63,637 nt of DNA from assembly GCA_964418095.1 (NCBI GenBank), contig CAYQKM010000004.1, positions 1-63,637 on the forward strand, in the 5' to 3' direction. Positions 46,724 through 62,563 of this stretch are shown in pieces. Each line of letters begins with the position of its first letter. Position 1 is the stretch's first letter. A program made the position numbers and the translations under genes. The notes under the pieces are model-generated. The model had not been told where the DNA came from. It was given only the letters and a program-made list of their open reading frames with translations, and did not search any database. Origin of the DNA: Candidatus Woesearchaeota archaeon. Lineage in GTDB: Archaea; Nanobdellota; Nanobdellia; Pacearchaeales; GW2011-AR1.

Positions 46724-46783
46724 AAACAGGCTGTTTAAACAGCAACAAACAGCAACAAACACCCCCCAACAGCTTCCAACACT
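46724..46783 (+). repeat. ~60-bp direct repeat, copy 1 (contains AAACAGGCTGTTT palindrome plus AAACAGCAACAAACACCCCCCAACAGCTTCCAACACT)
   Basis: The 37-bp core at 46747-46783 is identical to 46895-46931. The flanks match apart from two 1-nt indels. Confidence 0.85.
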
Positions 46784-46873
46784 CATAAACAGCTGTTTAA
46801 ACACCCGTAAACAGCAACAAACACCCTTCTATTCATATTTATTTTAATTTATTTCTCCGTCGATAAATGCCTC

Positions 46874-46931
46874 AAACAGCCGTTTAAACAGCATAAACAG
46901 CAACAAACACCCCCCAACAGCTTCCAACACT
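46874..46931 (+). repeat. ~60-bp direct repeat, copy 2
   Basis: The sequence is AAACAGCCGTTTAAACAGCATAAACAGCAACAAACACCCCCCAACAGCTTCCAACACT. It lies 150 bp downstream of copy 1. Confidence 0.85.
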
Positions 46932-47003
46932 CCAACACACATCCCACACATTTTAGCATATTCCAACACATATCCAACACATAATTCTAATAAGCACCAA
47001 AAA

Positions 47004-47059
47004 TATTCAATATAACTTACTTAACCTAAGTGCAAATAACTCTTGAAAATAAAAACTCT
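47004..47059 (+). repeat. 56-bp direct repeat, copy A
   Basis: TATTCAATATAACTTACTTAACCTAAGTGCAAATAACTCTTGAAAATAAAAACTCT is repeated at 47532-47587 with 2 mismatches. A 15-bp fragment (TAACCTAAGTGCAAA) also occurs at 47357-47371. Confidence 0.85.
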
Positions 47060-47531
47060 TTTTTTTCACTAAAATAAATTTTTTTTCTACACCTCAACCC
47101 CTCTCATCTAGCAACCCCTTCAAGTATTTCTCAGACAATTTTTTCCAAAAATTTCTCTTTAAGACTCTTTTAAACCCCTGTTTTAAATCACTGCCTTTTC
47201 ATCTCTTTTTTATTTTATTTCCTCCTTTATTTCACATACCCTCTTTTTACTAATTTTAATATCTTGACCAGCCATTTAACACCTCCAAAGATTCAGAACA
47301 TTATCCAACACATAACTCAAGCCCCAATAATCTTTAAAAAAGACAAACAACAAAGGTAACCTAAGTGCAAAAAGCCAGGGAAAAATTAAGATATTGCTTT
47401 GGATTTTTTCAAAAACCAAGCAAATTCCCTCCTTCCACAAACTCCTTTTCAGACTAACTCTATATATCTTGATTCATTATTAAAAAATACCCTCTCTAAA
47501 AACCCCTTTAAATACAAATGAAAACTAAAGG

Positions 47532-47587
47532 TATTCAATATAACTTACTTAACCTAAGTGCAAATAATTCTTAAAAATAAAAACTCT
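47532..47587 (+). repeat. 56-bp direct repeat, copy B
   Basis: The sequence is TATTCAATATAACTTACTTAACCTAAGTGCAAATAATTCTTAAAAATAAAAACTCT. Confidence 0.85.
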
Positions 47588-47854
47588 CTTTTAAAATTTA
47601 AAACCACTTCTATTGCTCCAGATTCAATTAACAAAATAAAGAAAATAAATTAAGAGATTCAGGACAAATCATCAAATTTACTCAAATTACCCAAAAATTA
47701 AAGAAATAATCAAAAAACACCCTAAAACTTCGCACAATATATCTTGTACGAACCTCAAAAATGCACTGTTTTAAGCGATTTTAAGAGGTTTTTTCAATAT
47801 AATAGGTATATTTACTAAGAAAAGTGATTTGTAATTTTTTTGGATTTTTTAGTT

Positions 47855-50800
47855 TCAATATCCATTAATAATATCATATATTTTTTTTCGGTCTTTTTCA
47901 GGAAGCCTTTTATAAATCTTTTTTATATCCTTATAGAGTCTCATTATTGTTTCTCTATCCCACCTGCTTTTAGCTTCTTGATACTCCTCCACTAGCCCAT
48001 AAATATCTTTTTTATCTATCTTAATTAGGACATCATTTATCTCCTTATAAAAATAATTTCTTGTTTTGTAAGGCAAGACAGGATAAATTTCCTTTATTTT
48101 ATAGTATTTTGCTCTTGCCCCCTCAATGTCTTTTTCTTTTAGTGATTTGTTTATTTCTTTAATTAAGTCAATCACTCTTGCCACATTAGGCTCTTTTTTC
48201 CAACCCCTCATTTTGAACTTTTTGAAAACAATTGGGGCAATTGTAAAAAGCACAACCAAAAACATAAATAAGATTACAATATAAATTGTTAAACCACCAG
48301 AAAGCCCCCCAAGCACAAAATATCCTGTAACTCTTGTTTTAATATTAGTTAAGTCATCTTCAAACAACATTGTTTCAGTATCTTCAATGTCTTTTAACTT
48401 TACAGATTCAGATATATAATAAATTATTTCATTGTTTTTAATGTCTTCTTGCTCTATTTCAAACAGATTTCCCTTTCCTTTTCTTTCACTATCTGTAATA
48501 AACACTATATTTTCTTTATTTTTAAAAAGGCTTTCTGGAATAAATTCCAGGATACTTCCACGAGAGTTTTCTCCAATTTTAACTTTCTTTGTAACTAATA
48601 TGAATTTTTGAGTTCCATTAGCATATTCTATCTCAACTTCCATGGCTTCTGAAGAAACAGATATATCATTTTGCATCTTTTTATTTATCTCCACCGATTT
48701 TCTTAAAGAAGCTCCTTTCAAGATCGTGTTTGTAGATGAAAAATACTCTTCAATTATCTGCTTAAAATCCCCACTTATACTGTTTTTAACATATTCGTAG
48801 TCTTTATTTACTTTGACATTTAATGGAATTTTTGTTCTTATAGATTCAAGCTCATTCAAATAATCTTCTGTTTTCTTTTTTCTCAAGCTTTCGCTACCAA
48901 CATACTTATAATTCTCTTGAAAAAAGTTTTGTATATCTAAAAGCCTTTTTTTATAGTATTTAGTTTCTTCTAAAATATTAAGTTTTTCCAAAACCTCTTT
49001 TTCCTTTAAACTATAATTTGAAGTTAGAACCTTATCTGCAAGCTCTTTTAACTTATCTACTTCTTCTTTAGAATCATAATATAAATCAGAGTTATTTGTA
49101 ACATTATTTAAAATAACCTGAAATATTGAAGCATTTAAATACTCGTTAGAGGAGTTATCAAAACACTCTACTTCCCAAAGGTAAATACCCTCTTCAAAAT
49201 CTGTTAGCATAACTACAACATTTTTATTATTTTGAACTGAATCATTGTTCGCTACAGATTTATCTTTAGAAGTTAGAGGAAATACTAAATTAGATTTGTT
49301 CCATGTGCAGTGAGTTAATGACGAGCATCCATTATATATTCTAAGTGAACAGTTTTTAATTTTAACATCATCACTGGCCCTGTATGTGAAATTTATTGAA
49401 TTTACATAAATTATTTGTTTTGAATAGGGTTTTAAGAGGGTAATGTCTGGGGCACTTTTATCTTTATTTGTTTGTCCAGTTACATTTAACTCACTTTGCT
49501 CAATTACATTTAATCCATTTTTTTGAATAATAAAATTCTCCCCCCCCATAATCATATTCAACTTAAGAGTATAATTGCCTTCTTGAGTATATTTTCTTGT
49601 AAATATCTTGTTAAATTGCAATGTGTTAATATCCAAATAAGTAATATTTGAATTTCCATCCCCATAATCTAAAATAACATGGGTTATATTCTTAAAAGGA
49701 GAGGTTATATTAGCAGTAACCTTAACAGAACCATCTTTTTTAATAGATGTTGCATTTAGACTCAGGTTTGCACTTGCAACAGAGAAATTAGTTAGTAGAG
49801 TATAATTTGGAGCAGGCTCATCAAATATTATCTTTAAGGCATAGTTTCCATCTCCCTTTAAGATAGATTCATTCATTATAAAAGATGCAGAGTTTGCATA
49901 ATTTCTACTGTAGATTATATTGTTCTCTCCTTTGATTATTTGAACAGAAAAATTTGAAGGGGCACTTGAATTAATTATTATTGTTTCACTGTTTAGTATT
50001 TTATTTTGGGTTAAATCTAAAAAATATAACTTTCCTTCTTTAAGAGAAGAGTTAAAAGTTTCATTTATTGAAAATGAGCCCAAACTTGCATTTGTCACAG
50101 ACTTATTCGAGGGATCTAAACATACTACCCCCCAATCATAATCTCCATTGGGCAAGTTTAAATTATAACTCTCATTTGAATTGAAAATTTCTTCAAAATT
50201 TTCTCCTATGCCTCCAACTTGAAGATTACAAATAAATTCTTTTGAATAATTCACGCTTATATTAAATAAAATGGGGTTTCTTACATTTCCAATAGGACCA
50301 GAAACATTCAAGAGTAAACTCTCTTCTTCAGAACCCTCTTCTTCAGAATTATTTATATTATTTAATTCTATAACTACCCTAAATATCTGCTCACTTAGGT
50401 GGGGAACAATCCACGAAACTTTCTCAATTAATCCATTGTCGTCTTCATCATAATACTCAACACCATATTCATCGAATAAAGTGATATCTATTCCTTCCTG
50501 ATTTTCCCAATAGATTCTTATATCTTTCTTTTCAGATTCTTGAGTTAAATCAATGTAAATTCGTAATTCTTTTTCAAAATGCTCTTCACTTGAAATAATC
50601 ACCTCTTTTTCAAATTCATTCTTTTTTATATCTTGTATTGGTTTCAAATTTTCACTAAGAAATTTCCAATCTTCTTCAATACAGTTTATAACTTCTACCT
50701 TCTTTTCCCCATTAGGAGAGTGAGAATATAATAAACAGTAATCTGTGCCCAAATTAATTTCTGGATTTTCTTCTTTTTCTTCAGTGTTTTCTGAATCTTT

Positions 50801-51115
50801 TTGGGAATTTTCTTTAGAAATATCTGACAAATTAATATACTCAAATTTTTCATTAGAAAAGCTCTCGTTTTTTGAATCGTCTGATTCAAATTTATCTTCG
50901 GAATCGCCTATCTCAATTTCATTTTCAAGCTCTCCACTATCTTCAGAGTATTCTCCCGTAGGTGGAGAGGCAGGATTATCTTCGACATTCTCTGGATTAT
51001 TACTCACACCATTTGAGTCATCAGGAGGGGAGGAATTTACCTGGGGTGCAATTAAAATTATAAATAAAATTGCTAAGAAAAAGATGAATAATGTGTTTAA
51101 AAATCTCTTATTCAT
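47855..51115 (-). CDS. giant surface protein: signal peptide, acidic linker, Ig/PKD-like repeats, C-terminal TM anchor, 122-aa cytoplasmic tail with duplicated tail motif
   Basis: 1086 aa. The signal peptide is MNKRFLNTLFIFFLAILFIILIAPQVNS. A PKD-like block reads VILDYGDGNSNITY...YTQEGNYTLKL. There are dozens of N-x-S/T sequons. The TM reads GLTIYIVILFMFLVVLFTIAPIVF. The tail (47855-48223) contains ...ARAKYYKIKEIYPVLPYKTRNYFY... and ...MRLYKDIKKIYKRLPEKDRKKIY... Confidence 0.7.
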   Translation of the reverse strand: MNKRFLNTLFIFFLAILFIILIAPQVNSSPPDDSNGVSNNPENVEDNPASPPTGEYSEDSGELENEIEIGDSEDKFESDDSKNESFSNEKFEYINLSDISKENSQKDSENTEEKEENPEINLGTDYCLLYSHSPNGEKKVEVINCIEEDWKFLSENLKPIQDIKKNEFEKEVIISSEEHFEKELRIYIDLTQESEKKDIRIYWENQEGIDITLFDEYGVEYYDEDDNGLIEKVSWIVPHLSEQIFRVVIELNNINNSEEEGSEEESLLLNVSGPIGNVRNPILFNISVNYSKEFICNLQVGGIGENFEEIFNSNESYNLNLPNGDYDWGVVCLDPSNKSVTNASLGSFSINETFNSSLKEGKLYFLDLTQNKILNSETIIINSSAPSNFSVQIIKGENNIIYSRNYANSASFIMNESILKGDGNYALKIIFDEPAPNYTLLTNFSVASANLSLNATSIKKDGSVKVTANITSPFKNITHVILDYGDGNSNITYLDINTLQFNKIFTRKYTQEGNYTLKLNMIMGGENFIIQKNGLNVIEQSELNVTGQTNKDKSAPDITLLKPYSKQIIYVNSINFTYRASDDVKIKNCSLRIYNGCSSLTHCTWNKSNLVFPLTSKDKSVANNDSVQNNKNVVVMLTDFEEGIYLWEVECFDNSSNEYLNASIFQVILNNVTNNSDLYYDSKEEVDKLKELADKVLTSNYSLKEKEVLEKLNILEETKYYKKRLLDIQNFFQENYKYVGSESLRKKKTEDYLNELESIRTKIPLNVKVNKDYEYVKNSISGDFKQIIEEYFSSTNTILKGASLRKSVEINKKMQNDISVSSEAMEVEIEYANGTQKFILVTKKVKIGENSRGSILEFIPESLFKNKENIVFITDSERKGKGNLFEIEQEDIKNNEIIYYISESVKLKDIEDTETMLFEDDLTNIKTRVTGYFVLGGLSGGLTIYIVILFMFLVVLFTIAPIVFKKFKMRGWKKEPNVARVIDLIKEINKSLKEKDIEGARAKYYKIKEIYPVLPYKTRNYFYKEINDVLIKIDKKDIYGLVEEYQEAKSRWDRETIMRLYKDIKKIYKRLPEKDRKKIYDIINGY

Positions 51116-51314
51116 TTTGCTTACCCCGCTTAGATTTACTAACCAAATATCCCTCGTTATACAACCAGAGAGTTATTATCTTTCCAACAACATCTTGCTC
51201 ATTATTTCCAATAACTCCAATCAGTTTTCTTATCGCTTCTTTTTGGTTTAAAGGTATTGTCCCTTTAACTGTAGAGCTTTTATGTTTGGCATCATTTAAG
51301 TCCTTTTTAGGCAT
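51108..51314 (-). CDS. small ribbon-helix-helix (CopG/Arc-like) DNA-binding protein
   Basis: The track ORF extends to 51395, but the plausible ATG is at 51314. MPKKDLNDAKHKSSTVKGTIPLNQKEAIRKLIGVIGNNEQDVVGKIITLWLYNEGYL fits a beta-strand plus two helices. Its stop overlaps the start of the giant gene by 8 nt (ATGAATAA). Confidence 0.5.
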   Translation of the reverse strand: MPKKDLNDAKHKSSTVKGTIPLNQKEAIRKLIGVIGNNEQDVVGKIITLWLYNEGYLVSKSKRGKQNE

Positions 51315-51427: not shown

Positions 51428-53437
51428 GTGAAAATCTTGTTTTTATCAAAGAGAGAAAATTTTTTATTGTTTTTTTTATTTGTAATTTTAATTTTTTTAA
51501 GATTTACTTCTGCTGAAGTTGGAACTACCTTGGAGATTATTAATGCCCCCCCATATTTAATCAAAGATATACCAGATCAAAGTTGGCCAGAAAATGAGAG
51601 CTTAATTGATGCATTTGATTTAGATGAATATTTTGGAGACCAAGAGGGAACCCCCCTTACATATTATAATTCTTCAGTTTCCGGAATCTATGTTGAAATA
51701 AACCCCATAACCCACACTGTTTCATTTTACCCTGCTCCAGGATTTTCAGGAAAAAGAGAGGTTACATTTTATGCTTCAGATTCAAAATACGATTCTCCAA
51801 GTAATGTTGTAACACTTTCTGTAGGACTAGATAAAGAGCCGCCGAAATGGTTTTTTCCAGGTATAGATAAAGAAGTCATTTATCAAAGCGATCTGGTAAC
51901 ATTCACAACAAATTGGACAGATGATAGAAATCTTAAAGAGTTTATTTTTTCAATAAATCAGGGAGCAGGATGGGAAAATTATTCTTCCACTTTCTTCTCA
52001 GGAAAAGAAAATATTTCATCATCAAAAATACAGATTAGAGCTCCTGCATTTAATATTGTTTATTGGAGATATTATGCATCAGATAGTTCTGGAAACATAA
52101 ACGTTACTGATATACAAAGCTTTACAGTTTCTCTTAAAGAAACTGGTGAAGGGCCTGGAAGCGGGAGTAATAATAAGACTTCAGGGGGATTATCTAACCT
52201 TTTTCAGAATGTAGATGTTTCAAAAGCAAGAAAAATAGAAGATTTCCAAATTAACATCTATGAACTTAGAGTTCAATTAAAGCAAGGAGAATCTAAAACG
52301 AGGTTATTAAAAATAACTAACACTGGACTTGAAGAGATTTTTATTAATCTCTCATCTCCTAAGCTACAAGATTTTGTAGTTTTCAGTTCATCCTCTTTTT
52401 CTCTCCCTTCAGGAAAATCAAAGGAGATTGCTTTAGATTTCCACGCTAAAGACAGAACAATCCCCGGACAATATTTTGGATATATTACTCTTAGCTCTCG
52501 CAATGTAAGTAAGTCCATTCCAACAGTGCTGGATATTCAAGGGATAAATTTAGAATTTGATGTAACTTTAAATATTTCAGAAGAATATAAGATAGTTAAG
52601 CCTGGAAAAGAAATCAAAGTAAACATGACTTTGAAAAATTTAAAAGACCTTAAAGACACAAAAATATCTCTTTACTATGCAATAAAAGATTATTTCGGGA
52701 CAGTTTATAACTTTTCAGAAGAAGATGCAACCCTTTTTTCCACACTTTCTCTGGAGAGAACATTACTTGTTCCAGAGGGAACACCCAAGGGAAAATATTT
52801 AGTCTATGTAAGAGCCTCAGATGATAAAAATATTGCAATAGACTCTGTAGAATTTGAAGTAGGAACAAAATTTAGTTTTTCTTCATTTATAAAAATAGGC
52901 TCAATATCTCTTTTAATTACAATCTTTGCTTTATTTTTAGCTATCTTAATGGTTAAGCGTAGAAAGGATAAAGAAAAAGAAAGAATCTTAGAATTATACA
53001 TTTTATTAAATAAATTAAAATCTTTAATAAAACAAAATAAAGAAGACGAAGCTTTAGATCTTTTCATAAAGATAAAAAAAATGTATCGGGAACCCCTCCC
53101 AAAAGATATATTTGATGATAAAGAAAAATTAAAAAAAGAAATATCTCTTTTATATGACAGTTTTTTAAAAGACAAAAATATATCTGAATTAAATAAAAAT
53201 GTCTCAAAAAATTTAGTTGCTCAACACCCACCTGCAAATAAAAACGAGAAACCTTTCTCAGATAAATCTCTTGAATTTTTACAAGAACAAAGAAAAAAAG
53301 GACTAACAGACTCCCAAATAAAAAAATTTCTTTTAAATAAAGGGTTTTCAGAGGAAGAAGTTGGAAAAATATTTAACTCCTTAAACAATAAATCAAATAT
53401 AAACAACCAGGTTAAAAAAAGAGACAAAAAAATTTAA
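51428..53437 (+). CDS. large surface protein: signal peptide, Ig-like domains, TM anchor, cytoplasmic tail with tail motif and KG[LF][ST]xx[EQ][IV] helical repeats
   Basis: 669 aa. It apparently starts at GTG, has no in-frame ATG in the signal peptide, and has GGGAGAGGA 16 nt upstream. The signal peptide is KILFLSKRENFLLFFLFVILIFLRFTSA. The TM reads ISLLITIFALFLAILMV. The tail (52955-53437) contains EDEALDLFIKIKKMYREPLPKD and KKGLTDSQIKKFLLNKGFSEEEVGKIFNSL. Confidence 0.65.
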   Translation: MKILFLSKRENFLLFFLFVILIFLRFTSAEVGTTLEIINAPPYLIKDIPDQSWPENESLIDAFDLDEYFGDQEGTPLTYYNSSVSGIYVEINPITHTVSFYPAPGFSGKREVTFYASDSKYDSPSNVVTLSVGLDKEPPKWFFPGIDKEVIYQSDLVTFTTNWTDDRNLKEFIFSINQGAGWENYSSTFFSGKENISSSKIQIRAPAFNIVYWRYYASDSSGNINVTDIQSFTVSLKETGEGPGSGSNNKTSGGLSNLFQNVDVSKARKIEDFQINIYELRVQLKQGESKTRLLKITNTGLEEIFINLSSPKLQDFVVFSSSSFSLPSGKSKEIALDFHAKDRTIPGQYFGYITLSSRNVSKSIPTVLDIQGINLEFDVTLNISEEYKIVKPGKEIKVNMTLKNLKDLKDTKISLYYAIKDYFGTVYNFSEEDATLFSTLSLERTLLVPEGTPKGKYLVYVRASDDKNIAIDSVEFEVGTKFSFSSFIKIGSISLLITIFALFLAILMVKRRKDKEKERILELYILLNKLKSLIKQNKEDEALDLFIKIKKMYREPLPKDIFDDKEKLKKEISLLYDSFLKDKNISELNKNVSKNLVAQHPPANKNEKPFSDKSLEFLQEQRKKGLTDSQIKKFLLNKGFSEEEVGKIFNSLNNKSNINNQVKKRDKKI

Positions 53438-53438
53438 A

Positions 53439-55793
53439 ATGAAAATTCTAAAAAAGTACTTTTTTGTTATTTGCATTTTCTCGCTTATGCTGAGTTTTTC
53501 CTTAATTGTGAGCGCTTCAGAGAATTCTGCATTTGGAGATGAAATAAAAAAAGAGTATTATTCTATTTCAAGAGACAAAATTGACAGAGTTGTGGCTCTT
53601 GGAACATTATTCCAGGATTTTATAACTATTGAAAATTTTAACACAAGATCTCTTTTTGTAAGCTTTTCAGTTTCAGGAGCAGCAGCCAACTTTATAGAAT
53701 TTGATTACTCGGGAATAGAGATTCTTCCTGGAGAGAGTTCTTCTTTTTATTTTTACATTAAAGGGGAAGAGGAAGGGTCATATATCGGAGAGTTCTCTTT
53801 ATCTGGAGGGGCCACAGAAAAAATTCCAGTTACAATAAAAATTATTAATTCTGATTTAAACCCAATATTTTTTATAGACACCGAACCTTTTAAGAAAACA
53901 TTTAATTTAAATGAAGATTTGAAATTTAAAATTTATCTTAATAAACTAAAATCTGGACCAGCAGAAAATTTAACAATCTCTTATTATTTAAACAATACTA
54001 AAAACGAATCATTTTTTTTAGGAGAAGAATCATTTAACTTTACAAACTCATTTTACTTAGTTAGAAAATTTAAAATACCTCAAGAAGCGGATAAAGGAGA
54101 TTATATTTTGCAAACAACAGCTACTTATTCAGGAGACTCAATTTTTTCTTTAAGTCGGTTTATAATAAAGAAACCTTTTTTTAAGATTCTCTTATTTGGA
54201 TTTTTACCTCTTTGGGCATTATTTTTAGGATTGGGGACAATTTTGTTATTCTTGCTAATATTCTTTTTAATAAGGAGAAAAATTAAATTATCAAAAAAAT
54301 ACAGAATGGAGCTTGATACAAAAAAGCTTCCTACTCCCAGTAAAGAGGTCTTGGTTTTAGGAAAAATTGCCGAGACTAAAATAAAAGCTTGCTTAGAACC
54401 TGAAAAATTGAAGATACACACAATTGTCGCTGGAGCTACTGGTGGAGGAAAAAGTATTGCTGCTCAAGTAATAGTAGAAGAAGCTCTTCTAAAAAATGTT
54501 GCAGTAATTGTTTTTGATCCAACAGCACAGTGGTCAGGTATGCTTAGAAAATGCGAAGACAAAAAAATGATTTCCTATTACCCTAATTTTGGATTAAAAC
54601 CTACAGATGCAAGGGCTTTCTTTGGGAATATAAGACAGATATCTCATGCCAGAGAAATTATTGATGTGAATAAGTTTATTCAGCCAGGACAAATACAGAT
54701 ATTTGCGTTAAATAAATTAGATCCAAATGATATGGATATTTTTGTTGCGAGTGTTATAAGGCAAATATTTAAGTCTGACCCAAAAGAAACCCCTGATTTA
54801 AAAGTTCTTTTAGTTTTTGATGAGGTTCACAGGTTACTTTCAAAATTTGGAGGTAGCGGAGAAGGATTTTTACAAATAGAAAGAGCATGCAGGGAGTTCA
54901 GAAAATGGGGAATTGGAGTTATGTTGGTCTCTCAGGTATTAAGTGACTTCGTTGGAGAGATAAAAGCAAACATTAACACTGAAATACAAATGAGGACAAG
55001 GGACGAAGGAGATTTAAAAAGAATAAACACGAAATATGGAGAAGAATTTTTGCAATCACTTGTTAAGGCATCAGTAGGGGTGGGAATGTTTGTAAATACT
55101 GCATACAACAAAGGTAGACCGTATTTCATAAACTTTAGACCCATCCTTCACAACACACGAAGACTTTCAGACGAGGAGTTAGAAAAGTACAATAAATATA
55201 ATGATATAATTGATGACTTTGAAAATCAAATAAATCAGCTTGAAACAGAAAAAGTAGACATATTTGATTTGAAGATGGAATTAAAACTGATTAAGGATAA
55301 GCTAATGACAGGAAACTTTTCAGTTGTGGATATTTATATCGAAGGCATAGCACCAAGATTGCAAAAACAATGGGAAAAAATAGGAAAGAAGCCAAAAAAA
55401 GTGGAGAAAAAATTACTAGACGAATCTGAATTAAAAAAATCATTAGAAGAAGCAAAAAAAGCAAGAGAAATTTTTGAAAAAGAAGAACAAAAGAAACAAA
55501 AAAAAGAAGAGAAAAAAACAGAAGCAGAAAATATTGGTACAAAAATACTTAAGCCTTTAACTTTTGATAATGGGATAATGATATCCACACTTAAAGAATT
55601 AAAAGATACTCTTCCAGGCATAGATAAAGAAATATTTTTGCTTCATGTGAATGAAAATAAGAATGATATCTCCAAGTGGGCAGCGCAGGTTTCAGCAGAT
55701 TTATCTAAAAAAATAGCAGCTGAAAGCGAAAAGTCAAAAATTGTTCTGATATTGGATCAATTTTTAAAAGAAGCAAGCACTAAAAAATCTTAA
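53439..55793 (+). CDS. membrane-anchored HerA/FtsK-like P-loop ATPase (DUF87-type) with N-terminal signal peptide and extracellular Ig-like domain
   Basis: 784 aa. The signal peptide is MKILKKYFFVICIFSLMLSFSLIVSA. The ectodomain is about 215 aa (SFSVSGAAANFIEFDYSGIEILPGESSSFYFYIKGEEEGSYIGEFSL). The TM spans about aa 246-278 (nt about 54174-54272). The HerA-type core has Walker A (HTIVAGATGGGKSIAAQVI...VIVFDPTAQW), Walker B (LLVFDEVHRLL) and REFRKWGIGVMLVSQVLSDF...INTEIQMRTRD. A Lys/Glu coiled coil follows, then a C-terminal LTFDNGIMISTLKELKDTLPGIDKEIFLLHVNENKNDISKWAAQV domain. Confidence 0.75.
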   Translation: MKILKKYFFVICIFSLMLSFSLIVSASENSAFGDEIKKEYYSISRDKIDRVVALGTLFQDFITIENFNTRSLFVSFSVSGAAANFIEFDYSGIEILPGESSSFYFYIKGEEEGSYIGEFSLSGGATEKIPVTIKIINSDLNPIFFIDTEPFKKTFNLNEDLKFKIYLNKLKSGPAENLTISYYLNNTKNESFFLGEESFNFTNSFYLVRKFKIPQEADKGDYILQTTATYSGDSIFSLSRFIIKKPFFKILLFGFLPLWALFLGLGTILLFLLIFFLIRRKIKLSKKYRMELDTKKLPTPSKEVLVLGKIAETKIKACLEPEKLKIHTIVAGATGGGKSIAAQVIVEEALLKNVAVIVFDPTAQWSGMLRKCEDKKMISYYPNFGLKPTDARAFFGNIRQISHAREIIDVNKFIQPGQIQIFALNKLDPNDMDIFVASVIRQIFKSDPKETPDLKVLLVFDEVHRLLSKFGGSGEGFLQIERACREFRKWGIGVMLVSQVLSDFVGEIKANINTEIQMRTRDEGDLKRINTKYGEEFLQSLVKASVGVGMFVNTAYNKGRPYFINFRPILHNTRRLSDEELEKYNKYNDIIDDFENQINQLETEKVDIFDLKMELKLIKDKLMTGNFSVVDIYIEGIAPRLQKQWEKIGKKPKKVEKKLLDESELKKSLEEAKKAREIFEKEEQKKQKKEEKKTEAENIGTKILKPLTFDNGIMISTLKELKDTLPGIDKEIFLLHVNENKNDISKWAAQVSADLSKKIAAESEKSKIVLILDQFLKEASTKKS

Positions 55794-57664
55794 TTCAAAT
55801 CATAATACAAATAAACTTTTTCACTTTCTGTTAAGTAATACTCTCTTAATCTAGAAGGAATTTTTATTTCATAATCATAAATTCCATATGCTCCTTCAGA
55901 AACCCTATTTACTTCTGTTACAAAAATTACATCTTCCTTATCTGTTTCATCAAATTCGTTATTCCCCCCATCATCAGATGAATCCCATAAAATACCTGTC
56001 ACGAAGCTAGAGCCCTCAGTAGATTCTATTACCGGGACATTTTTTATTTCTCTTTGATATATCACCATATCTTTAGTATTTTTTGGGATTTGGGAATTTG
56101 AAAATAGTTTTGAGATAGAGTCTTCAAAATCATCCATTTTTAAAAGATTATCTATCTCTAAAAAGTCATTTGAACTCTCTTCTCCTAATTTAGATCTTCC
56201 TATTGATTCCAACATCATCCAATTAATATCGCTTTCAGAGTCTGTTATAAAGATGTGCCCTTCAATTTTACTCTCATTATACCATTTTTTCATATCTATT
56301 TCTTCCCCGCCTATTATTTTGTCTAATGTAATGTTTCCATAAATTTCTTGCCAAGCATTTACTGAAATTTCTTTATTTCCTTTATTATTTAGCTTATTTT
56401 TTTCAGATATTAATTCGGTATAATCAACAATAACAAATATCTTGCTTTTTCCAATTTTAGCATGCCAAGGAATTTTAATAGATAGATTGGAAATAGCACT
56501 CATATTTACAACAACATTTCCTATCTCTTCTCCGGAATTTTCAGGATCTTCCTCAAAAAAAGATATTAAGATGTTTTCTGCTGACAAACATCCATCATTT
56601 TTAATAAACACACTTAAATTAACTTCTTCACCTTCTAGAGGGTTAGGATTGTCTAGTGAAATATCTTCCCCCCTTATAGATAATTCTGCAAAATTGGGGT
56701 AAGCATAGAGGGGTGTCGAATAAACATTATTTATATTACCCGCATTATCTTCAGCAATACAATTAAATAACCAGTCTCCTGTTTCATTTAAAATTATATC
56801 CGAATAATACTCTCTGCTCGTAATTTCCAAAGAAGCATAATTTATTATTTCACCTGAAGGGGAAATAGATTGGATTGTCACCTTATTTATTCCAGAAAAA
56901 GAATCATACGCTTTACAGACTGCCCCCACACTATCTATTTCTTCACAAGAATGGGTGATGTTTAAATGGATAGATTCAATTATTGGTTCAGATAAATCAA
57001 TCCCAAAACTATTGTTTACACTAGAGAATTTTGGTATCTTTAGAGAATCTACCACCTGGCAGGAATATTTATAGAAACCCTCTGTTAATGTTTTTGTAAA
57101 TGTTTTAAATCTTTCTCCGAATAAAACCTCTTTTGTTTCATTTAATTCCCACACTCCGCTCCAGTTTCCATAAATGCTTACTTCTTCTAAGTTTTCATCT
57201 AAATCCTTTAAAGAACAATTAAATTCTATTACATTATAATTTAGGAATGAACTGTCTTGAGGAAAAACCAACGAAACTTCAGGAGGAGAGTTTAAAGTTA
57301 TTCTCTCAACAACACTCTCACTATTAAAACTAACACTTACATTTGTCTCTTTAGAGACATATCCGTCTCCATTATCAATTATTTTCAATGTTAATATGTC
57401 TCCTGTTATGCAAGGAGGGTTAAGCAGCTCACAATCTATACTATAATTATTTTCTTGATTAGAATTTCCAAATATCCCAATAATATCACTAAGGTGGTCA
57501 TCTTCCCCATTATAAAAGTTCCAAAGCATAATCGTGTGGTTATCTGCAGGTGTAGAATCCAATGCATTTTCCACACTCCCTATGATATAGTGTGATGCAG
57601 AAACATTTCCTATTAAGAATAAGATTAGAGTAATAATTGCCCCAAATATGTAATTCTTTTTCAT
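55790..57664 (-). CDS. secreted protein with conserved N-terminal HYI-G-VENA domain (paralog 1)
   Basis: 624 aa. The signal peptide is MKKNYIFGAIITLILFLIGNVSAS, followed by HYIIGSVENALDSTPADNHTIMLWN...SDIIG..GNS...YSIDCELL..C...LTLKIIDNG..YVS.E...ITLNSPP. There is no C-terminal TM. Its stop overlaps the convergent ATPase stop (TTAA at 55790-55793). Confidence 0.65.
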   Translation of the reverse strand: MKKNYIFGAIITLILFLIGNVSASHYIIGSVENALDSTPADNHTIMLWNFYNGEDDHLSDIIGIFGNSNQENNYSIDCELLNPPCITGDILTLKIIDNGDGYVSKETNVSVSFNSESVVERITLNSPPEVSLVFPQDSSFLNYNVIEFNCSLKDLDENLEEVSIYGNWSGVWELNETKEVLFGERFKTFTKTLTEGFYKYSCQVVDSLKIPKFSSVNNSFGIDLSEPIIESIHLNITHSCEEIDSVGAVCKAYDSFSGINKVTIQSISPSGEIINYASLEITSREYYSDIILNETGDWLFNCIAEDNAGNINNVYSTPLYAYPNFAELSIRGEDISLDNPNPLEGEEVNLSVFIKNDGCLSAENILISFFEEDPENSGEEIGNVVVNMSAISNLSIKIPWHAKIGKSKIFVIVDYTELISEKNKLNNKGNKEISVNAWQEIYGNITLDKIIGGEEIDMKKWYNESKIEGHIFITDSESDINWMMLESIGRSKLGEESSNDFLEIDNLLKMDDFEDSISKLFSNSQIPKNTKDMVIYQREIKNVPVIESTEGSSFVTGILWDSSDDGGNNEFDETDKEDVIFVTEVNRVSEGAYGIYDYEIKIPSRLREYYLTESEKVYLYYDLN

Positions 57665-57668
57665 TTTT

Positions 57669-59693
57669 TCATCCTCTTTCTTTTACACTTGCTATAACTA
57701 TTTTTTTTTCTTTATTATTAAGTGTTTTGTATCTTTCTTTTGCATTATTATATAGATTTAAAGCCTCTTCCTCTTTCCCCTCATTTAAAAGATGCTTAGA
57801 TTTTTTTATGTCTTCTATGATTGTTATAACATGTTTTAAGTAAGGCTCTCTTTTTATTTTTAAAAAATAGATTACAAGTATTAAAGCAAAGAACCCTAAA
57901 ATAATTATGCCCCCCGGCCCTTTACCCCCTAATTCAAATATAAAGTTCCCAGTTATTTTTGATGCCCCTTCATCATTTCTTATTTTTATTGGGACAATTA
58001 ATATTTCCTCTGCAGAAGATGCTGTAATCTCTTTGCTGAAATAATACACTATTTTTTTGGTGCCTGAATTGAATGATAAAACTGGGTCGTCCTTTACAAT
58101 TGTATAATCTAAGTTCATCATTTTAATTCCAGAAGCTTTTTCTGAAATCTCTTTTGGAACAACCAGGATAAATTTTAATTCATCATCTTTTTCTAAGCTG
58201 GAACTAATCTCTTCTTTTAACAAACTAATAGTTTTCTTTGTACCATCAAGGTAAAGTATATTCAAAATAGAAATTTTTCCAGTTATAATAATCTTTTTCT
58301 CGCTTATTATCTTTAATATTTCATTCAGCTCTTTTTCATTATTAGATTCTGAATTAGAGTAATATTCTAGAAGAGCTATTTGCAGGTTCTTTTCGTTTAA
58401 TTCCCTGCTTATTTCTTTTTCTTCTTTAATAATAATATCCTCTGGTATTTTTTTCTTAACTATATTTATTCTGAGATTCATAGAGTCCAGCTTTTTGTTT
58501 AATTCTTCTAAACTTAAATCCTGAGATTTATAACTTTCTACATCTCTTTTAATAGAGTTTAATTCAGCTAAAGAATCTTCTATTTCTTTATCTAATTTAA
58601 TTTCACTAAATATTTCCCTTTTTCTATCTCCCCCATACCCAATAAGATAAGATATCTCCTCAACATTTGCTATTATTGTATTTATTTCAGATATTTGGTT
58701 TTCTACTTTTCCTATTAAGCTGGGATTAAGTCCTTTTACTTGAGATGAGTTTGTAATTAAAGCGGTAGCATAAACTTCTTTTGAAAGGTCTCCAATGTTT
58801 CCCGCATCATCTATTCCTGCAACTCTATAATAATATGTTTTCCCTTTTTCAACATCATTATCATAAAAGTAATCCTTTGAAGATGATTTGTAAAAATCAG
58901 TATATTCTATTCTCGGATTTTCAGATCTATACACATAAAATTCATTAAGACTTTCTTCAGAAAACCAACTTAATTTTATTTGTCCTTGATATCCAACAGC
59001 ATCAACTATATTTATTGTAGAGGGTTTTAAACTATCTACAATAAAAGAATTGTCCCCTATAATTTTAGTTCCTTCCTCCCCTGTCAAATCTTTTGCTTTA
59101 AACCTAAATGAGCACACACTCTCTCCAACAGATGCAGGGATAATTAAATTTCCTTCCCATACACTTCCCTTTCCTGTTAAAGAAATCGGTTTATACACTA
59201 TCTCATCAAAGCTATATTCTAATACTGGAGTTTCTAAACTTGTCTTGGAAGTTATTAAGCTTATTTTATATTTCCCTTCTTTGAGCGGGGGTTCTTTAGA
59301 TAATTTTATTTTAGCATAAATAGGAATACTTATCCCAAATCCAACTTCTAATTCAGAATTAGAATCTTCTCCGCATCGAATATAGTATTTGTGAAACCCT
59401 TCTTCTAAGTTTTCTATATACACCTCATGGATTAACCCATACTCTCCATCAAAATTTTTTAGAAGTGAACTTTCTGTTCTATACTCACACCTTGTCTCTT
59501 CTAAGGTGTTTATCCTCAACACAACAGAGTCTGTTTTGTATATCTTATTAGATATAATAGAACCTCCTTCGGAAGTATATTCTGCAGTTATTATTGAAGC
59601 AGACGCAGCAGAAACCTCCACAATAATTAAAGATGTAACTATTAATCCTAGAATCACCAACATTAAATTTTTATTTTTTCTATTTAATATCAT
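57669..59693 (-). CDS. large surface protein with FN3-like domain, coiled-coil stalk, TM anchor and cytoplasmic tail motif
   Basis: 674 aa. The signal peptide is MILNRKNKNLMLVILGLIVTSLIIVEVSAAS. The FN3-like block reads IKLSWFSEESLNEFYVYRSEN...KGKTYYYRVAGIDDAGNIG. The TM reads GIIILGFFALILVIYFL. The tail (57669-57860) contains EEEALNLYNNAKERYKTLNNKEKK. Confidence 0.65.
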   Translation of the reverse strand: MILNRKNKNLMLVILGLIVTSLIIVEVSAASASIITAEYTSEGGSIISNKIYKTDSVVLRINTLEETRCEYRTESSLLKNFDGEYGLIHEVYIENLEEGFHKYYIRCGEDSNSELEVGFGISIPIYAKIKLSKEPPLKEGKYKISLITSKTSLETPVLEYSFDEIVYKPISLTGKGSVWEGNLIIPASVGESVCSFRFKAKDLTGEEGTKIIGDNSFIVDSLKPSTINIVDAVGYQGQIKLSWFSEESLNEFYVYRSENPRIEYTDFYKSSSKDYFYDNDVEKGKTYYYRVAGIDDAGNIGDLSKEVYATALITNSSQVKGLNPSLIGKVENQISEINTIIANVEEISYLIGYGGDRKREIFSEIKLDKEIEDSLAELNSIKRDVESYKSQDLSLEELNKKLDSMNLRINIVKKKIPEDIIIKEEKEISRELNEKNLQIALLEYYSNSESNNEKELNEILKIISEKKIIITGKISILNILYLDGTKKTISLLKEEISSSLEKDDELKFILVVPKEISEKASGIKMMNLDYTIVKDDPVLSFNSGTKKIVYYFSKEITASSAEEILIVPIKIRNDEGASKITGNFIFELGGKGPGGIIILGFFALILVIYFLKIKREPYLKHVITIIEDIKKSKHLLNEGKEEEALNLYNNAKERYKTLNNKEKKIVIASVKERG

Positions 59694-60879
59694 GCTTTTT
59701 ACCTCTGGATTTTTCTCTTTTTATTTTGTATGCAAGATATGCGATTAAGATAATCAAGATAATATAAATCAAATAGATTTTTATTTTGTCCCATTTAATA
59801 CCAGTACCCTCTACATTAATTACTGCGCTTTTCTCAAAGGTTCTCTTACTATCATAAAATACTGCCCCGTTAACAATATATTTTCCCTCACTTTTTGGAG
59901 TAAAATAAAACTTAAAAGTTTCTTTTCCCCCAACATTAACTAAACTTCCTTCACTTTCAAGTATCTGCATTATTTTACTTCCAAGAGTTATTGCTCCTTT
60001 AAACCTAGCATTCACTGTTTTCTCCCCGACATTTTCAAATGTTGCTTCAATCAAAACAGTGTCTCCTACTTTTATTCTTGGAGGAGCGATAATGCTTAGG
60101 AGAGTTCCTTGAGATTTTAATGCGCCTTCTTCTAAAATATCAAATGTTAAAGTCTCAGATGCATAACACTCTACAGAAGTTACTTCTGCCCAATACTGTC
60201 CAATTTCAAGCCCAGAGGAACTTACAGGAATAATTATCTCTTTTTCTGTAGTTGGGATAATCATTTCTTCTGAAAATTCAACTTGTTTTACAATACCTAT
60301 CCTATCTCTATCCCAAATATCAATTTTAACAGTAGGATACAACCTAATGTTTCCCTGATTAAGTACATTTAATTTGAATAAAATATCTTCTCCTTTTTCA
60401 ACAGATTCAACTTTAAATCCCCCTGCTCTACATAAAGAATATTCCACATCTGTTACTCCCACTTCTAAATATAAATCCAATGCAGCATTTACTATTCCAG
60501 TAGCTTGCCCCTCTGCTCCTTTGAGTTTATTTTCTGTTGTAACTCTTATGAATCCAGAATAATTTCCATTAGGCATATCTAAGGGGGGTTGCACAGATAT
60601 TTTCAAATAATATGGACTTGCCTTGGATATTTCAAATTCTTTTTTTTCAAATGAAATCCACTCTGCAATATCTCCGCGGACATCTAAAATTACATTTATT
60701 GGTTCTTCTGTATCTACTGTTATTGTTACTGTTCTCTCAGAATACCCTCCCCTTAATACATCTTTAAAATAAATATTTGCAGGACTTACTCCTATATTTG
60801 CAGAAGAAATAAATGTCATAAACAAAGGTAAAACTAGTAAAATCATTCCAAATTTTAATTTATTCAACTGTTTATTCAT
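59680..60879 (-). CDS. surface protein with tandem Ig-like (PapD/NEW3-like) domains and C-terminal TM anchor
   Basis: The track ORF extends to 60897. The ATG at 60879 follows the upstream stop directly and gives the signal peptide MNKQLNKLKFGMILLVLPLFMTFISSANIG. Ig-like blocks read VSPANIYFKDVLRGGYSERTVTI...IAEWISFEKKEFEI...NGNYSGFIRV. The C-terminal TM reads IYLIYIILIILIAYLAY. Confidence 0.6.
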   Translation of the reverse strand: MNKQLNKLKFGMILLVLPLFMTFISSANIGVSPANIYFKDVLRGGYSERTVTITVDTEEPINVILDVRGDIAEWISFEKKEFEISKASPYYLKISVQPPLDMPNGNYSGFIRVTTENKLKGAEGQATGIVNAALDLYLEVGVTDVEYSLCRAGGFKVESVEKGEDILFKLNVLNQGNIRLYPTVKIDIWDRDRIGIVKQVEFSEEMIIPTTEKEIIIPVSSSGLEIGQYWAEVTSVECYASETLTFDILEEGALKSQGTLLSIIAPPRIKVGDTVLIEATFENVGEKTVNARFKGAITLGSKIMQILESEGSLVNVGGKETFKFYFTPKSEGKYIVNGAVFYDSKRTFEKSAVINVEGTGIKWDKIKIYLIYIILIILIAYLAYKIKREKSRGKKHDIK

Positions 60880-60880
60880 T

Positions 60881-62080
60881 TTAATTCTCCGGTGCATTTA
60901 CAGCACCAAAAACAATATTACCTTGACAGCTTCCGGATATATAATTCGGAACACGTATTCTCCAATAGGTTCCTTTCACAGCCTCATCTTGATTTTCACT
61001 CTTTCTATAATCTAAATTGAATGTTTCTATTTTCGGAGATGAGGTTAGATTAATATATTTTGATTCAAATTCCTCTAAGCTTATTTCTCCTCCATTTGAT
61101 TTTGTAAGATTAAATCGTTCGTACGTTACGGGGATGTTATTTGTCTCTTCTCCACTGACACAAGTCATAGCGTATCCATCCTCTTCTTGAGAACCATATC
61201 CACTTAACGACAAATTAATTTTAATATTTCCATAATTTGTAATATTTATTCTACTCTCTTTAGTAATCTCTTTGCCTTCTTCAATCTCAAAATGAATTAT
61301 AGAATCAACACCTAATGCTAAAAGAGGGTTTATAAAAGAAGTGTCACCTTTTTTAGAAACTATTGAAAAATTATCCTGAACAGAGATGGTACAATTCCAA
61401 AACTCAGAATTAGCATAATACCAGACATAGAATGCGCAGGTTATTTTCGCTTCATTTTGGGTTCCATAAGAATAGTTTATTTCACAGCTATCATTTGTAT
61501 AATGGAGATTATTATCATTAAAGTCTTCGAAATATGAATTAACACTATCAAAGAATACAGCACTTGCATTTGTCAAAGAAAATTCTCCATCATATTCTGT
61601 AGCGATTGCAGTACATTTAATCTCTTTAGTCGCGGCAGGGATTAAATCTATTTCCTTCTCCGGAAAAGGGAGATCATCTTCAATATGTATGCTCGTAATA
61701 TTTGGGGGAGAATTAAGAGTTATATTTTCCACAATATCATACCCATATCCACCAACAAGAACGCTTTTTTCTCCAGAAATATAATTGTTCCCATTATTAA
61801 CCACTTTCAATGTAAGTGTATTTGTAACATTGCATCCGCTTTTTAACATCTCACAATCAATCATATATATCCCACTTGCTTTGGAATTTCCTTCAGGCCC
61901 AATTATATCACTTACATTTTCTATTGCACCAATTTCAGTGTTCCAAAGAACTATAGAAAGTCCATTAGGACTAGTGCCATCTTTAGCATTTTCAACATAT
62001 CCTACAATATAGTGAGCAGCAGAGCACATTTGAATTACAAATATTATCCCAATTATACTTAGCAAAAACATTTTTTTCAT
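60881..62080 (-). CDS. secreted protein with conserved N-terminal HYI-G-VENA domain (paralog 2)
   Basis: 399 aa. The signal peptide is MKKMFLLSIIGIIFVIQMCSAA, followed by HYIVGYVENAKDGTSPNGLSIVLWN...SDIIGPEGNS...YMIDCEMLKSGC...LTLKVVNNGNNYISGE...ITLNSPP. It is colinear with the first ~125 aa of 55790..57664. Confidence 0.65.
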   Translation of the reverse strand: MKKMFLLSIIGIIFVIQMCSAAHYIVGYVENAKDGTSPNGLSIVLWNTEIGAIENVSDIIGPEGNSKASGIYMIDCEMLKSGCNVTNTLTLKVVNNGNNYISGEKSVLVGGYGYDIVENITLNSPPNITSIHIEDDLPFPEKEIDLIPAATKEIKCTAIATEYDGEFSLTNASAVFFDSVNSYFEDFNDNNLHYTNDSCEINYSYGTQNEAKITCAFYVWYYANSEFWNCTISVQDNFSIVSKKGDTSFINPLLALGVDSIIHFEIEEGKEITKESRINITNYGNIKINLSLSGYGSQEEDGYAMTCVSGEETNNIPVTYERFNLTKSNGGEISLEEFESKYINLTSSPKIETFNLDYRKSENQDEAVKGTYWRIRVPNYISGSCQGNIVFGAVNAPEN

Positions 62081-62406
62081 ATTAAATCTAAAATGACCTC
62101 CCTTTTTGAGACTACTTCATATGTTCTGTTTGGAAGCATTACAAAATTTTCTCCTATGCCTCCAAATACATTTACATATCCTTTTTCTTCTCCATTTTCA
62201 GTGCAACTTATAGTAGATATCTCAGGAAATAAATTAACTAAATCTTTAACATAGATTGGATTAAAATCAGCACTTGTATTTAGAAAAGTTTTCCCTTCAT
62301 TAAGTACGATTCCCTCCCCTAAATCAATTTCTTCAGCAAAAAGAATATCTACTGTACCCAAGAAGATGCCAATGAAAAATACTGCAAACAAAATTTTCTT
62401 ATTCAT
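62077..62406 (-). CDS. small secreted protein
   Basis: The track start is TTG (62424) and the ATG is at 62406. The signal peptide is MNKKILFAVFFIGIFLGTVDILFA. It overlaps the downstream gene by 4 nt (ATGA). Confidence 0.5.
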   Translation of the reverse strand: MNKKILFAVFFIGIFLGTVDILFAEEIDLGEGIVLNEGKTFLNTSADFNPIYVKDLVNLFPEISTISCTENGEEKGYVNVFGGIGENFVMLPNRTYEVVSKREVILDLI

Positions 62407-62563
62407 TTTTGTCCTCCGTAACAATTATTTTTTTGTTAATAGGATCAAATTTCAAAATTATTTTTGAGCCTTCTTTTAGATTTAGAGTATCTACAATTGC
62501 CTTGGGTATTTTTATCCTATGACCTTTTTGTATTTTATTATCTTTAAATGTAATCTCTACCAT
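62399..62563 (-). CDS. AbrB/SpoVT-like (swapped-hairpin barrel) small DNA-binding protein
   Basis: It is below the track cut-off. Hand translation gives MVEITFKDNKIQKGHRIKIPKAIVDTLNLKEGSKIILKFDPINKKIIVTEDKNE. The R-I-x-I-P-K-x-I...L-x-L-x-x-G pattern is AbrB-like. Its stop overlaps the next gene's start by 8 nt (ATGAATAA). Confidence 0.55.
   Translation of the reverse strand: MVEITFKDNKIQKGHRIKIPKAIVDTLNLKEGSKIILKFDPINKKIIVTEDKNE

Follow-up and report, generated by a model that had tools for sequence, protein, structure and literature searches.

A 63,637-nucleotide (nt) stretch of DNA from a Candidatus Woesearchaeota archaeon (contig CAYQKM010000004.1; the whole stretch is referred to here as the window) was analyzed around an open reading frame (ORF) on the plus strand that starts with ATG, spans exactly 53439..55793, and encodes a protein of 784 amino acids (aa). 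The product is predicted to be a type-I membrane protein with a cytoplasmic HerA-type ATPase and very probably represents a short member of the SPEARE family.

Hydropathy analysis (Kyte-Doolittle) identified two hydrophobic segments. The first, residues 3-28, is introduced by MKILKK and followed by SAS|E, and residues 1-28 (53439..53522) as a whole resemble a signal peptide. The second, strong stretch, residues 245-285 (54171..54293), is followed by RRKIKLSKKYR, a positive-inside signature. The part predicted to lie outside carries four N-glycosylation sequons (N-x-S/T), which are clustered at residues 177-200. An AlphaFold2 model built with 49 homologues in the alignment (mean pLDDT, the predicted local distance difference test, 82.9) placed two beta-sandwich domains at residues ~35-136 and 144-244, a transmembrane (TM) helix at 258-285, a RecA-like core at 300-570, helices at 578-695 that comprise a conserved region (578-648) and a long Lys/Glu-rich helix (662-695), and an alpha/beta domain at 705-780. 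When the N-terminal part of the model was compared with the PDB by Foldseek, tandem immunoglobulin (Ig)-like folds were retrieved (RbmA, hydin/CFAP, and WxLIP), and residues ~35-244 (53541..54170) are read from model and fold search as two Ig-like domains, predicted to be extracellular. The signal peptide, Ig-like ectodomain, TM anchor, and Lys/Glu coiled coil followed by a C-terminal domain that had been proposed in a sequence-only reading of this DNA all agree with hydropathy and the model. A TM region of about 33 residues had also been proposed; the TM itself is retained, but the length is better accounted for by a conserved juxtamembrane motif, KPF(F/W)...LFG (here KPFF..LFG), plus a TM helix of ~20 residues with the flank RRKIKLSKK; in the SPEARE homologue, charged residues split the two parts. 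Together, these predictions support well an N-out/C-in topology with a single TM helix.

The cytoplasmic part starts with a RecA-like ATPase domain (residues 300-572; 54336..55154). Walker A (AGATGGGKS, residues 331-339; 54429-54455) contains K338, and Walker B (VLLVFDEVH, residues 456-464; 54804-54830) contains D461 and E462. The motif REFRKWGIGVMLVSQ at residues 485-499 includes the arginine finger R488 (54900-54902) and the sensor VSQ (residues 497-499), and QMRTRD occupies residues 517-522. Pfam assigned the DUF87/HerA central domain (E = 1e-10; 42.5 bits, cut-off 23.2) and HerA_C (E = 1.7e-8; 34 bits, cut-off 22), and the P-loop models ResIII, AAA_10, DEAD, and TrwB gave sub-threshold matches. 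PDB sequence searches with the single sequence and with a profile returned HerA-family entries only, apart from two marginal unrelated matches at E >= 0.005, and the top Foldseek matches of the ATPase core were the HerA structures 8xav, 9x1l, and 4d2i (E ~1e-11). HerA models of PADLOC matched as well, up to E = 9.3e-17. By sequence and modeled fold, the motor thus belongs to the HerA clade rather than to VirB4/TraG, and the motifs quoted earlier for a HerA-type P-loop ATPase are confirmed.

K338, E462, and R488 align with K154, E356, and R381 of Sulfolobus HerA and are invariant in 49 homologues. In the Sulfolobus enzyme, K154R and R381K each abolish ATPase activity, R381 acts in trans, and mutants at K154, E356, and R381 could not sustain the essential in vivo function (PMC4351679). 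The alignment shows that the catalytic apparatus expected of a ring translocase is intact here. The likeness to HerA proteins, both the archaeal HerA-NurA end-resection helicase and the Sir2-HerA and DUF4297-HerA defense systems, extends to the DUF87 plus HerA_C RecA-like core, the Walker A lysine, the Walker B glutamate, and the trans arginine finger, and these proteins provide the best PDB matches in sequence and fold. In contrast to them, the window protein is anchored in the membrane and has an ectodomain and a TM in place of the N-terminal HAS-barrel. The profile alignment to Sulfolobus HerA (4d2i) starts only at chain residue 117, equivalent to residue ~295 here and directly after the TM, and the residues before the TM are Ig-like; the HAS-barrel is therefore absent. 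Furthermore, the distance from Walker A to the next conserved block is ~50 residues versus ~120 in 4d2i, indicating that the helical-bundle insertion, the DNA entrance of canonical HerA (PMC11514289), is much shortened.

A homologue search covering 5.8 billion proteins yielded 871 matches to the 784-aa protein. The best 120 of these share 52-85% identity with it, mostly at >90% query coverage, and the named ones among them are "DUF87 domain-containing" or similar proteins from metagenome-assembled genomes (MAGs) of Woesearchaeota, Pacearchaeota, Nanoarchaeota, and Nanobdellota. Among the close homologues with a recognizable Walker A, a strong TM is found ~50 residues upstream of that motif in 104 of 104, and an N-terminal hydrophobic segment is found in 91 of the same 104. 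As more than 100 independently assembled homologues have the same architecture, the fusion is not an assembly chimera of two genes, a concern raised in the sequence-only reading.

To define the extent of the family, the cytoplasmic cassette (residues 286-651) was compared by phmmer with 1.84 billion cluster representatives, and 369 clusters (50% identity) were retrieved at E < 1e-30. The cassette forms the C-terminal end of proteins of up to 6,253 aa, with one cluster member reaching 7,818 aa, and in 109 of 123 distant representatives with a recognizable Walker A, a single TM precedes that motif at a short distance. The constant unit is therefore the TM, the HerA-type ATPase, and the helical domain that follows it, whereas the ectodomain carried on this unit ranges from ~50 to >5,600 residues. 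Among the members with names are a 4,862-aa Woesearchaeota protein and a Nanohaloarchaeota protein (P0263), and the cluster mates of P0238, whose cluster includes the 7,818-aa member from JGI, are labeled Hadesarchaea/Hadarchaeales. Thus, the cassette spans at least 369 clusters at 50% identity in MAGs of Woesearchaeota, Pacearchaeota, Nanohaloarchaeota, and Hadarchaeales.

These data bear on whether the protein could be an ordinary cytosolic HerA, active in NurA-linked repair or anti-phage defense, with an artefactual N-terminal part. The Pfam, PADLOC, and NCBIfam matches are indeed to HerA models, but the scores stay far below the equivalog cut-offs (e.g., 31 bits versus 800), a HAS-barrel is lacking, and neither NurA, Sir2, DUF4297, nor any other nuclease partner was detected by Pfam, PADLOC, and NCBIfam among the nine neighboring proteins. 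With respect to defense-system membership, generic HerA models were the only ones matched in PADLOC. The ectodomain and TM are kept in all 104 close homologues and in 109 of the 123 distant representatives counted above, and with the fusion conserved to this degree, a cytosolic or defense HerA with an artefactual N terminus is effectively excluded.

SPEARE proteins of Nanohaloarchaeota are mostly extracytoplasmic, with a TM near the C terminus and an intracellular region that is their most conserved part and was annotated as a type III restriction enzyme (Hamm et al. 2019, PMC6642349). In the supplementary information (SI) of that study, a P-loop and ResIII are placed right after the TM, together with DUF87 for one Nanopetramus SPEARE; versions of 655 and 717 aa were already given, the latter with a TM at 323-345 and a P-loop region at 374-616, and similar sequences were noted in Woesearchaeota, Aenigmarchaeota, Micrarchaeota, and Altiarchaeales (PMC6642349). 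Homologues of 8,880 and 9,409 aa were re-analyzed by Reva et al. 2023 (PMC10266531), in whose description these giants consist of a signal peptide, ~75 Ig-like domains, a TM, a cytosolic "VirB4/TraG-like ATPase," and a coiled coil.

We compared the window protein with the C-terminal 476 residues of Ca. Nanohaloarchaeum antarcticus NAR1_1133, the sequence being taken from the SI of PMC6642349. BLASTP aligned them with residues 210-641 at 42% identity over 446 residues (E = 8e-119), an alignment that covers the last Ig domain, the TM, and the intracellular part. The blocks common to both proteins are DPTAQWSG, DEVHRLL.KFGGSG.G..Q.ER..REFRKWG, KPYF..FRP.LH...RLSDE.LEKY, and the helical domain. 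Cassette members of acidic composition, a sign of likely halophiles, were also selected, which resulted in one named Nanohaloarchaeota protein, P0263. It matched window residues 111-635 at 39% identity over 543 aa (E = 1e-119), including the end of the first Ig-like domain and the whole second. On the strength of these two identities, we assign the 784-aa type-I membrane protein, with high confidence, as a short SPEARE-family member of DPANN archaea, encoded in a Woesearchaeota/Pacearchaeota-type genome.

The assignment agrees with the order of elements known from SPEARE proteins (NAR1_1133; Ca. Nanopetramus SG9; SVXNc_0300 and BNXNv_0298), namely, a Sec-type N terminus, an Ig-like/adhesion ectodomain, a single TM, a cytoplasmic DUF87/P-loop ATPase, and a helical (coiled-coil) domain; the same spurious weak ResIII match occurs in both. 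The intracellular P-loop region is homologous to that of NAR1_1133, and hydropathy, the AlphaFold2 model, and the homologues all place a single TM directly before it. The helical domain (residues 573-650; 55155..55388; RLSDEELEKY...MELKLIKDKLMTGNFSVVDIYIEG) is common to the SPEARE proteins, whose sequence stops there; the window protein, however, continues with a poorly conserved Lys/Glu-rich long helix or linker (residues 651-700; 55389..55538) and a small DUF5752-like alpha/beta domain (residues 701-784; 55539..55790; LTFDNG...HVN..KNDI..W). By sequence comparison, these two elements are extras of the clade to which the window protein belongs, and some homologues are devoid of them. Size is another difference: 784 aa falls short of the thousands of residues typical of SPEARE proteins (~3,300-9,400 aa), with an ectodomain cut down to two Ig-like domains. 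Length does not strictly define the family, though, because its authors include the 655- and 717-aa versions. The published definition also includes at least one laminin-G domain plus other adhesion domains (PMC6642349); no laminin-G, beta-propeller, toxin-like, or other adhesion domain was found in the window ectodomain with Pfam, also at relaxed thresholds. Finally, the gene is surrounded by genes for single-pass surface proteins, while the nanohaloarchaeal loci contain a VirB4-like ATPase.

The name SPEARE implies serine protease and restriction endonuclease activities, but a protease or endonuclease domain was not found in the window protein either, ResIII remaining below the Pfam threshold (E = 1.1e-3; 19.3 bits versus 22.5); Reva et al. 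judged the giant SPEARE proteins likewise (PMC10266531). These comparisons correct the earlier statement that no described motor is fused to an exposed Ig-like domain, since SPEARE proteins have precisely this fusion (PMC6642349, PMC10266531). The combination of Ig-like ectodomain, TM, and HerA-type motor was published in 2019 and reinterpreted in 2023, and the window protein does not represent a novel type. Literature searches combining DPANN with HerA or DUF87, or DUF87 with Pacearchaeota, gave nothing relevant, and papers on archaeal "dark matter" are silent on the family.

Motors that are tethered to the membrane and move DNA or protein across envelopes, i.e., CedD of the Ced system, VirB4/TraC, VirD4/TraD/TrwB, and FtsK/SpoIIIE, belong to the same superfamily as the window ATPase. 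They have N-terminal TM hairpins or multi-pass domains and are not known to carry a large exposed domain. In addition, the Ced, type IV secretion system (T4SS), and FtsK motors work with polytopic channel proteins, none of which is present in the window cluster. The best NCBIfam match of the ATPase protein was CedD (41.9 bits, E = 5.4e-11), far below its cut-off of 600, as was TraC (23 bits versus 567); the equivalog cut-offs for CedD (600), HerA (800-970), and TraC (567) were not approached. As the CedD score is not reached and the cluster contains no multi-pass membrane protein, the resemblance to Ced and conjugation suggested by the sequence-only reading stays an analogy.

For the giant homologues, a T4SS-like "straw" that injects effectors has been proposed (PMC10266531). 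Transferred to the window protein, this would make it a secretion ATPase of VirB4/TraG type that pushes effectors through the ectodomain into a host cell. Homology to the giants speaks for such a role, as do the exclusively secreted or surface proteins encoded next to the ATPase gene and weak sub-threshold matches to AAA_10 (E = 1.1e-3), TrwB_AAD_bind (E = 6.5e-3), TraC (E = 1.5e-5), and TraD (E = 3.8e-4). Nevertheless, the VirB4/VirD4 signatures do not reach their Pfam thresholds (AAA_10, 18.5 bits versus 27.5; TrwB_AAD_bind, 15.8 versus 20.5), sequence and fold place the ATPase with HerA instead, and no T4SS ATPase appeared among the PDB sequence matches or the Foldseek top 50. The window lacks a CagE_TrbE_VirB domain, a second VirB4-like ATPase, and any other T4SS component; no T4SS or conjugation genes lie beside the ATPase gene, where single-pass or secreted proteins and small regulators are encoded. 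Moreover, two Ig domains (~8 nm) do not by themselves extend far enough to enter another cell. We consider a secretion ATPase of this type unlikely.

The gene cluster around the ATPase gene was then examined. The gene directly upstream, which encodes a 669-aa protein (51428..53437, plus strand), ends 1 nt before the ATPase start codon; the product has a signal peptide, extra N-terminal domains, a double-Ig module, a TM, and a cytoplasmic tail with a helical-hairpin module. Transcribed away from this pair on the minus strand are genes for a small conserved cytoplasmic protein (68 aa from an internal ATG; 51108..51314), which heads the divergent operon, and a 1086-aa protein (47855..51115) with a signal peptide, an acidic low-complexity region, a large ectodomain, a TM, and a tail with two helical-hairpin modules. 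The 68-aa protein has no Pfam match, and our guess from its sequence would be a regulator of the ribbon-helix-helix type. Downstream, a convergent minus-strand operon encodes, in order, proteins of 54, 115, 399, 405, 674, and 624 aa. It is headed by the 54-aa AbrB/MazE-like protein (62399..62563; Pfam MazE_antitoxin, E = 7.3e-6, 26.3 bits, cut-off 24.7), whose position is occupied by a 52-aa ORF in two related loci (L001 and L002). Three secreted or anchored proteins with signal-peptide-like N termini (405, 399, and 115 aa; 59680..62424), of which the 405-aa one has a C-terminal TM, are followed by a 674-aa surface protein (57669..59693) with a signal peptide, ectodomain, coiled coil, TM, and short tail with a helical-hairpin module. 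The last gene encodes a secreted 624-aa protein with a CARDB domain (55790..57664). All large proteins of the cluster have signal-peptide-like N termini, and a single C-terminal TM is present in the 1086-, 669-, 674-, and 405-aa proteins. No second HerA- or VirB4-like ATPase was found in the window, and no polytopic channel protein of the CedA, VirB6, or ComEC type was found in the conserved cluster.

Conservation of the neighborhood was assessed by tblastn of the partners over 81 related loci. The 669-aa protein was matched in 54 of them, mostly immediately upstream of the ATPase gene, the 1086-aa protein in 55, the 624-aa protein in 42, and the 68-aa protein in 32 (at 47-83% identity). The 1086-, 68-, and 669-aa genes and the ATPase gene stay together, mostly in the same arrangement, down to ~30% partner identity. 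Elsewhere, the secreted-protein module and the ATPase gene adjoin in other relative orientations, and the module also accompanies paralogous ATPase genes, which it directly precedes in L043, L048, and L058 and, in one case (L060), follows. These data show that the ATPase gene is tightly linked to genes for single-pass surface proteins.

The ATPase ectodomain (residues 37-260) is homologous to residues 269-492 of the 669-aa protein (hhalign probability, 99.2%; E = 1.9e-19; 220 columns) and also to the membrane-proximal domains of the nanohaloarchaeal homologues. An ectodomain resembling the neighboring surface proteins had been predicted, and this holds for the 669-aa protein; the likeness to the 405-aa neighbor is weak by hhalign, and homology to the 1086-, 674-, 624-, and 399-aa neighbors was not supported. 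The double-Ig module common to the ATPase protein and the 669-aa partner suggests mixed assemblies. In their tails, the 1086-, 669-, and 674-aa proteins have a helical-hairpin module of ~50 aa in common (hhalign probability, 80-97%; 97.3% for the 674-aa tail against the 1086-aa tail). Homology of the post-ATPase helical domain to these cytoplasmic tails was considered and rejected (hhalign probability, <1%). As a separate observation, the 669-aa tail bears at its end a short helical motif, LTDSQIKKFLLNKGFSEEEVGKIFNSL, that faintly resembles Pex14_N (E = 0.055); the motif is kept in the four closest 669-aa orthologues examined and missing from the next three, which are more distant.

By analogy to VirB4 and pilin, the ATPase might serve as an assembly or turnover motor whose ring engages the tails of the 669-, 1086-, and 674-aa proteins to insert, polymerize, tension, or extract them, with no cargo crossing the membrane. 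The tail module common to three single-pass partners would fit, as would the co-conservation of the partners with the ATPase across paralogues and the lack of a channel protein in the cluster. On the other hand, the partner tails are not markedly more conserved than the ectodomains, a contact between tail and ATPase is conjectural, and the giant SPEARE-type members bear the motor on the adhesin itself. A motor of this kind appears rather improbable to us.

In a scan of GTDB with one genome per species, 474 relatives were found. The titles of the 76 retained loci almost all read Woesearchaeota, Pacearchaeota, Nanoarchaeota, or "archaeon," the exceptions being one MAG labeled Diapherotrites and two labeled "uncultured Methanosarcinales." Two ATPase paralogues often lie 10-25 kb apart in these relatives. 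The second paralogue is longer in many genomes (~1,120-1,270 aa; e.g., L003 19621-22376, L031 1797-5390, and L048 8609-12292; proteins P0089 and P0102), has CarboxypepD_reg repeats in an ectodomain of ~650 aa, and is encoded no more than 10-25 kb from the short form. As the window stops at 63637, the source genome may hold a second ATPase copy.

The C-terminal domain was modeled at a pLDDT of 92.7. As a single sequence it has no Pfam match, a PDB profile search gave nothing below E = 0.3, and Foldseek with the high-confidence model, a comparison suggested beforehand, retrieved no PDB fold match (best E = 2.9). A hidden Markov model (HMM) of the domain, however, detected stand-alone cytoplasmic proteins of ~170-420 aa, whose genes closely follow paralogous ATPase genes in 13 loci (L044, L054, L065, L066, L070, L071, L073, L075, L077, L079, L080, L081, and L031). 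One of four such proteins tested scored above the Pfam threshold for DUF5752 (E = 2.1e-7; 30.9 bits, cut-off 23), and three scored below it. The C-terminal domain is thus linked to DUF5752 (PF19027) indirectly, through these stand-alone neighbors; the ...HVN..KNDFA.WI motif is common to both, but the window domain alone falls short of Pfam significance. The stand-alone proteins (e.g., L071 12826-14052 and L080 12783-13637) consist of one or two DUF5752-like domains, a low-complexity linker, and a conserved helical C terminus (F.EFSDEELEKF...DL.LR...KI.YY), and the one in L066 (5937-7196) is fused to CBS domains. The post-ATPase helical domain was also considered as a relative of these proteins, and an HMM of it gave no match.

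Different parts of the protein are conserved to very different degrees. Identity to the homologues has a median of 77% (minimum, 73%) in the ATPase and 74% (minimum, 65%) in the helical domain, compared with medians of 35% in the ectodomain and 17% in the signal peptide. By sequence, the ectodomain is the fast-evolving part, the pattern expected of an exposed outer part joined to a constrained motor. A variable, fast-evolving ectodomain (~50 to >5,600 aa) on a constant cytoplasmic cassette would also be compatible with a receptor or adhesin role at the cell surface, the ATPase serving as a nucleotide-dependent switch for inside-out or outside-in signaling or clustering without processive translocation, and the optional DUF5752-like domain, which occurs as a separate cytoplasmic protein too, fits this picture. 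Yet the complete catalytic set, including the trans arginine finger, is invariant, which points to cooperative ring hydrolysis as in translocases, and no signaling output domain was detected. A receptor or adhesin switch is therefore quite improbable.

Several features of the window lie outside the cluster. The window carries Orc1/Cdc6, PolD DP1 and DP2, and SRP54 at a GC content of 29.6% and is chromosomal; PolD is also near the ATPase cluster in L003. A 1.3-kb region (46564-47855), ~4 kb from Orc1/Cdc6, has no ORF of >=60 aa and is strongly G-poor on the plus strand. It holds AAACAGCAACAAACACCCCCCAACAGCTTCCAACACTC twice, palindromes of the GCTGTTTAAACAGC type, and an 82-nt direct repeat (46983-47064 and 47511-47592, 87% identical) whose core, TAACCTAAGTGCAAATAA, is present three times. 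No Rfam match at gathering score was obtained for the region, and its equivalent in L001 has small ORFs; candidate readings are a regulatory region, an origin-like region, or a decayed element. At the right end, an ORF in frame 2 (63050-63637, plus strand; MKKGLIRVGAIGFLLLIISGIVFFS...) with a signal-peptide-like start runs off the window and probably encodes another surface protein; its position matches that of a >1,100-aa gene following the cluster in L001. Genes at 20247-24824 (minus strand) for a 762-aa T2SSE/type IV pilus-type ATPase (Pfam E = 2.5e-14) and an adjoining 726-aa protein with a weak DUF2207_C match constitute a separate surface-filament system, ~30 kb from the cluster. ARAGORN and Rfam report one tRNA each in different places, tRNA-Ser(GGA) at 2406-2487 and an Rfam tRNA at 6666-6757 (minus strand); the latter, missed by ARAGORN, may be an atypical or intron-containing archaeal tRNA.

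How might the SPEARE-family protein work? Like other FtsK-HerA ATPases, it would assemble into a ring, probably a hexamer, beneath the membrane and thereby gather six TM helices and six double-Ig stalks into a bundle. Lateral association of the 669-aa protein via like Ig modules is plausible, since that protein has the same double-Ig module and a TM and is co-operonic, and the other single-pass partners could join through their common cytoplasmic tail module to form a surface complex. At cell-cell contacts, the energy of ATP hydrolysis would then serve to move a polymer through the membrane of the symbiont itself, DNA by family precedent or otherwise protein; alternatively, the motor may load or extract partner proteins. 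We put forward a membrane-anchored ring motor of this kind tentatively, with oligomeric state, partner contacts, substrate, and direction all inferred. Several points weigh against it. The HAS-barrel is absent and the DNA-entrance insertion of canonical HerA much shortened; a DNA-conducting pore is not evident, given one TM per protomer and no polytopic channel protein in the cluster; unlike in nanohaloarchaeal loci, neither a nuclease nor a second VirB4-type ATPase was found nearby; and the role of SPEARE itself is disputed in the literature. With these points weighed, SPEARE identity combined with a ring-motor mechanism is, on balance, a probable account of the protein as a whole.

SPEARE-type proteins are prime candidates for the attachment of DPANN archaea to their hosts and for host exploitation, and the functions proposed so far, i.e., restriction enzyme, invasion tool, and secretion "straw," are contested. 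At 3,000-9,400 aa, they are also difficult to investigate. The window protein is a new, unusually small member of this already described family, and it offers a tractable target because it comprises the conserved core only and because many related genomes contain the core of its partner cluster as well. What is added here is a motor of the HerA clade without a HAS-barrel in place of a VirB4 affinity, a broad cassette family, a double-Ig partner, a DUF5752-like C-terminal domain, and a conserved cluster of single-pass surface proteins, three of them with a common tail module. More speculatively, the protein might be the minimal SPEARE core (double Ig, TM, HerA motor, and helical domain) and form, with its partners, an unrecognized DPANN-wide apparatus for ATP-driven transport across the envelope, a proposal that we hold to be doubtful at present. 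If true, it would represent a new type of archaeal uptake or secretion system, in which a HerA-clade motor operates in the absence of a polytopic channel; it would serve host-dependent archaea in the exchange of DNA or protein with the cells of their hosts, and the giant SPEARE proteins would be elaborations of the minimal core.

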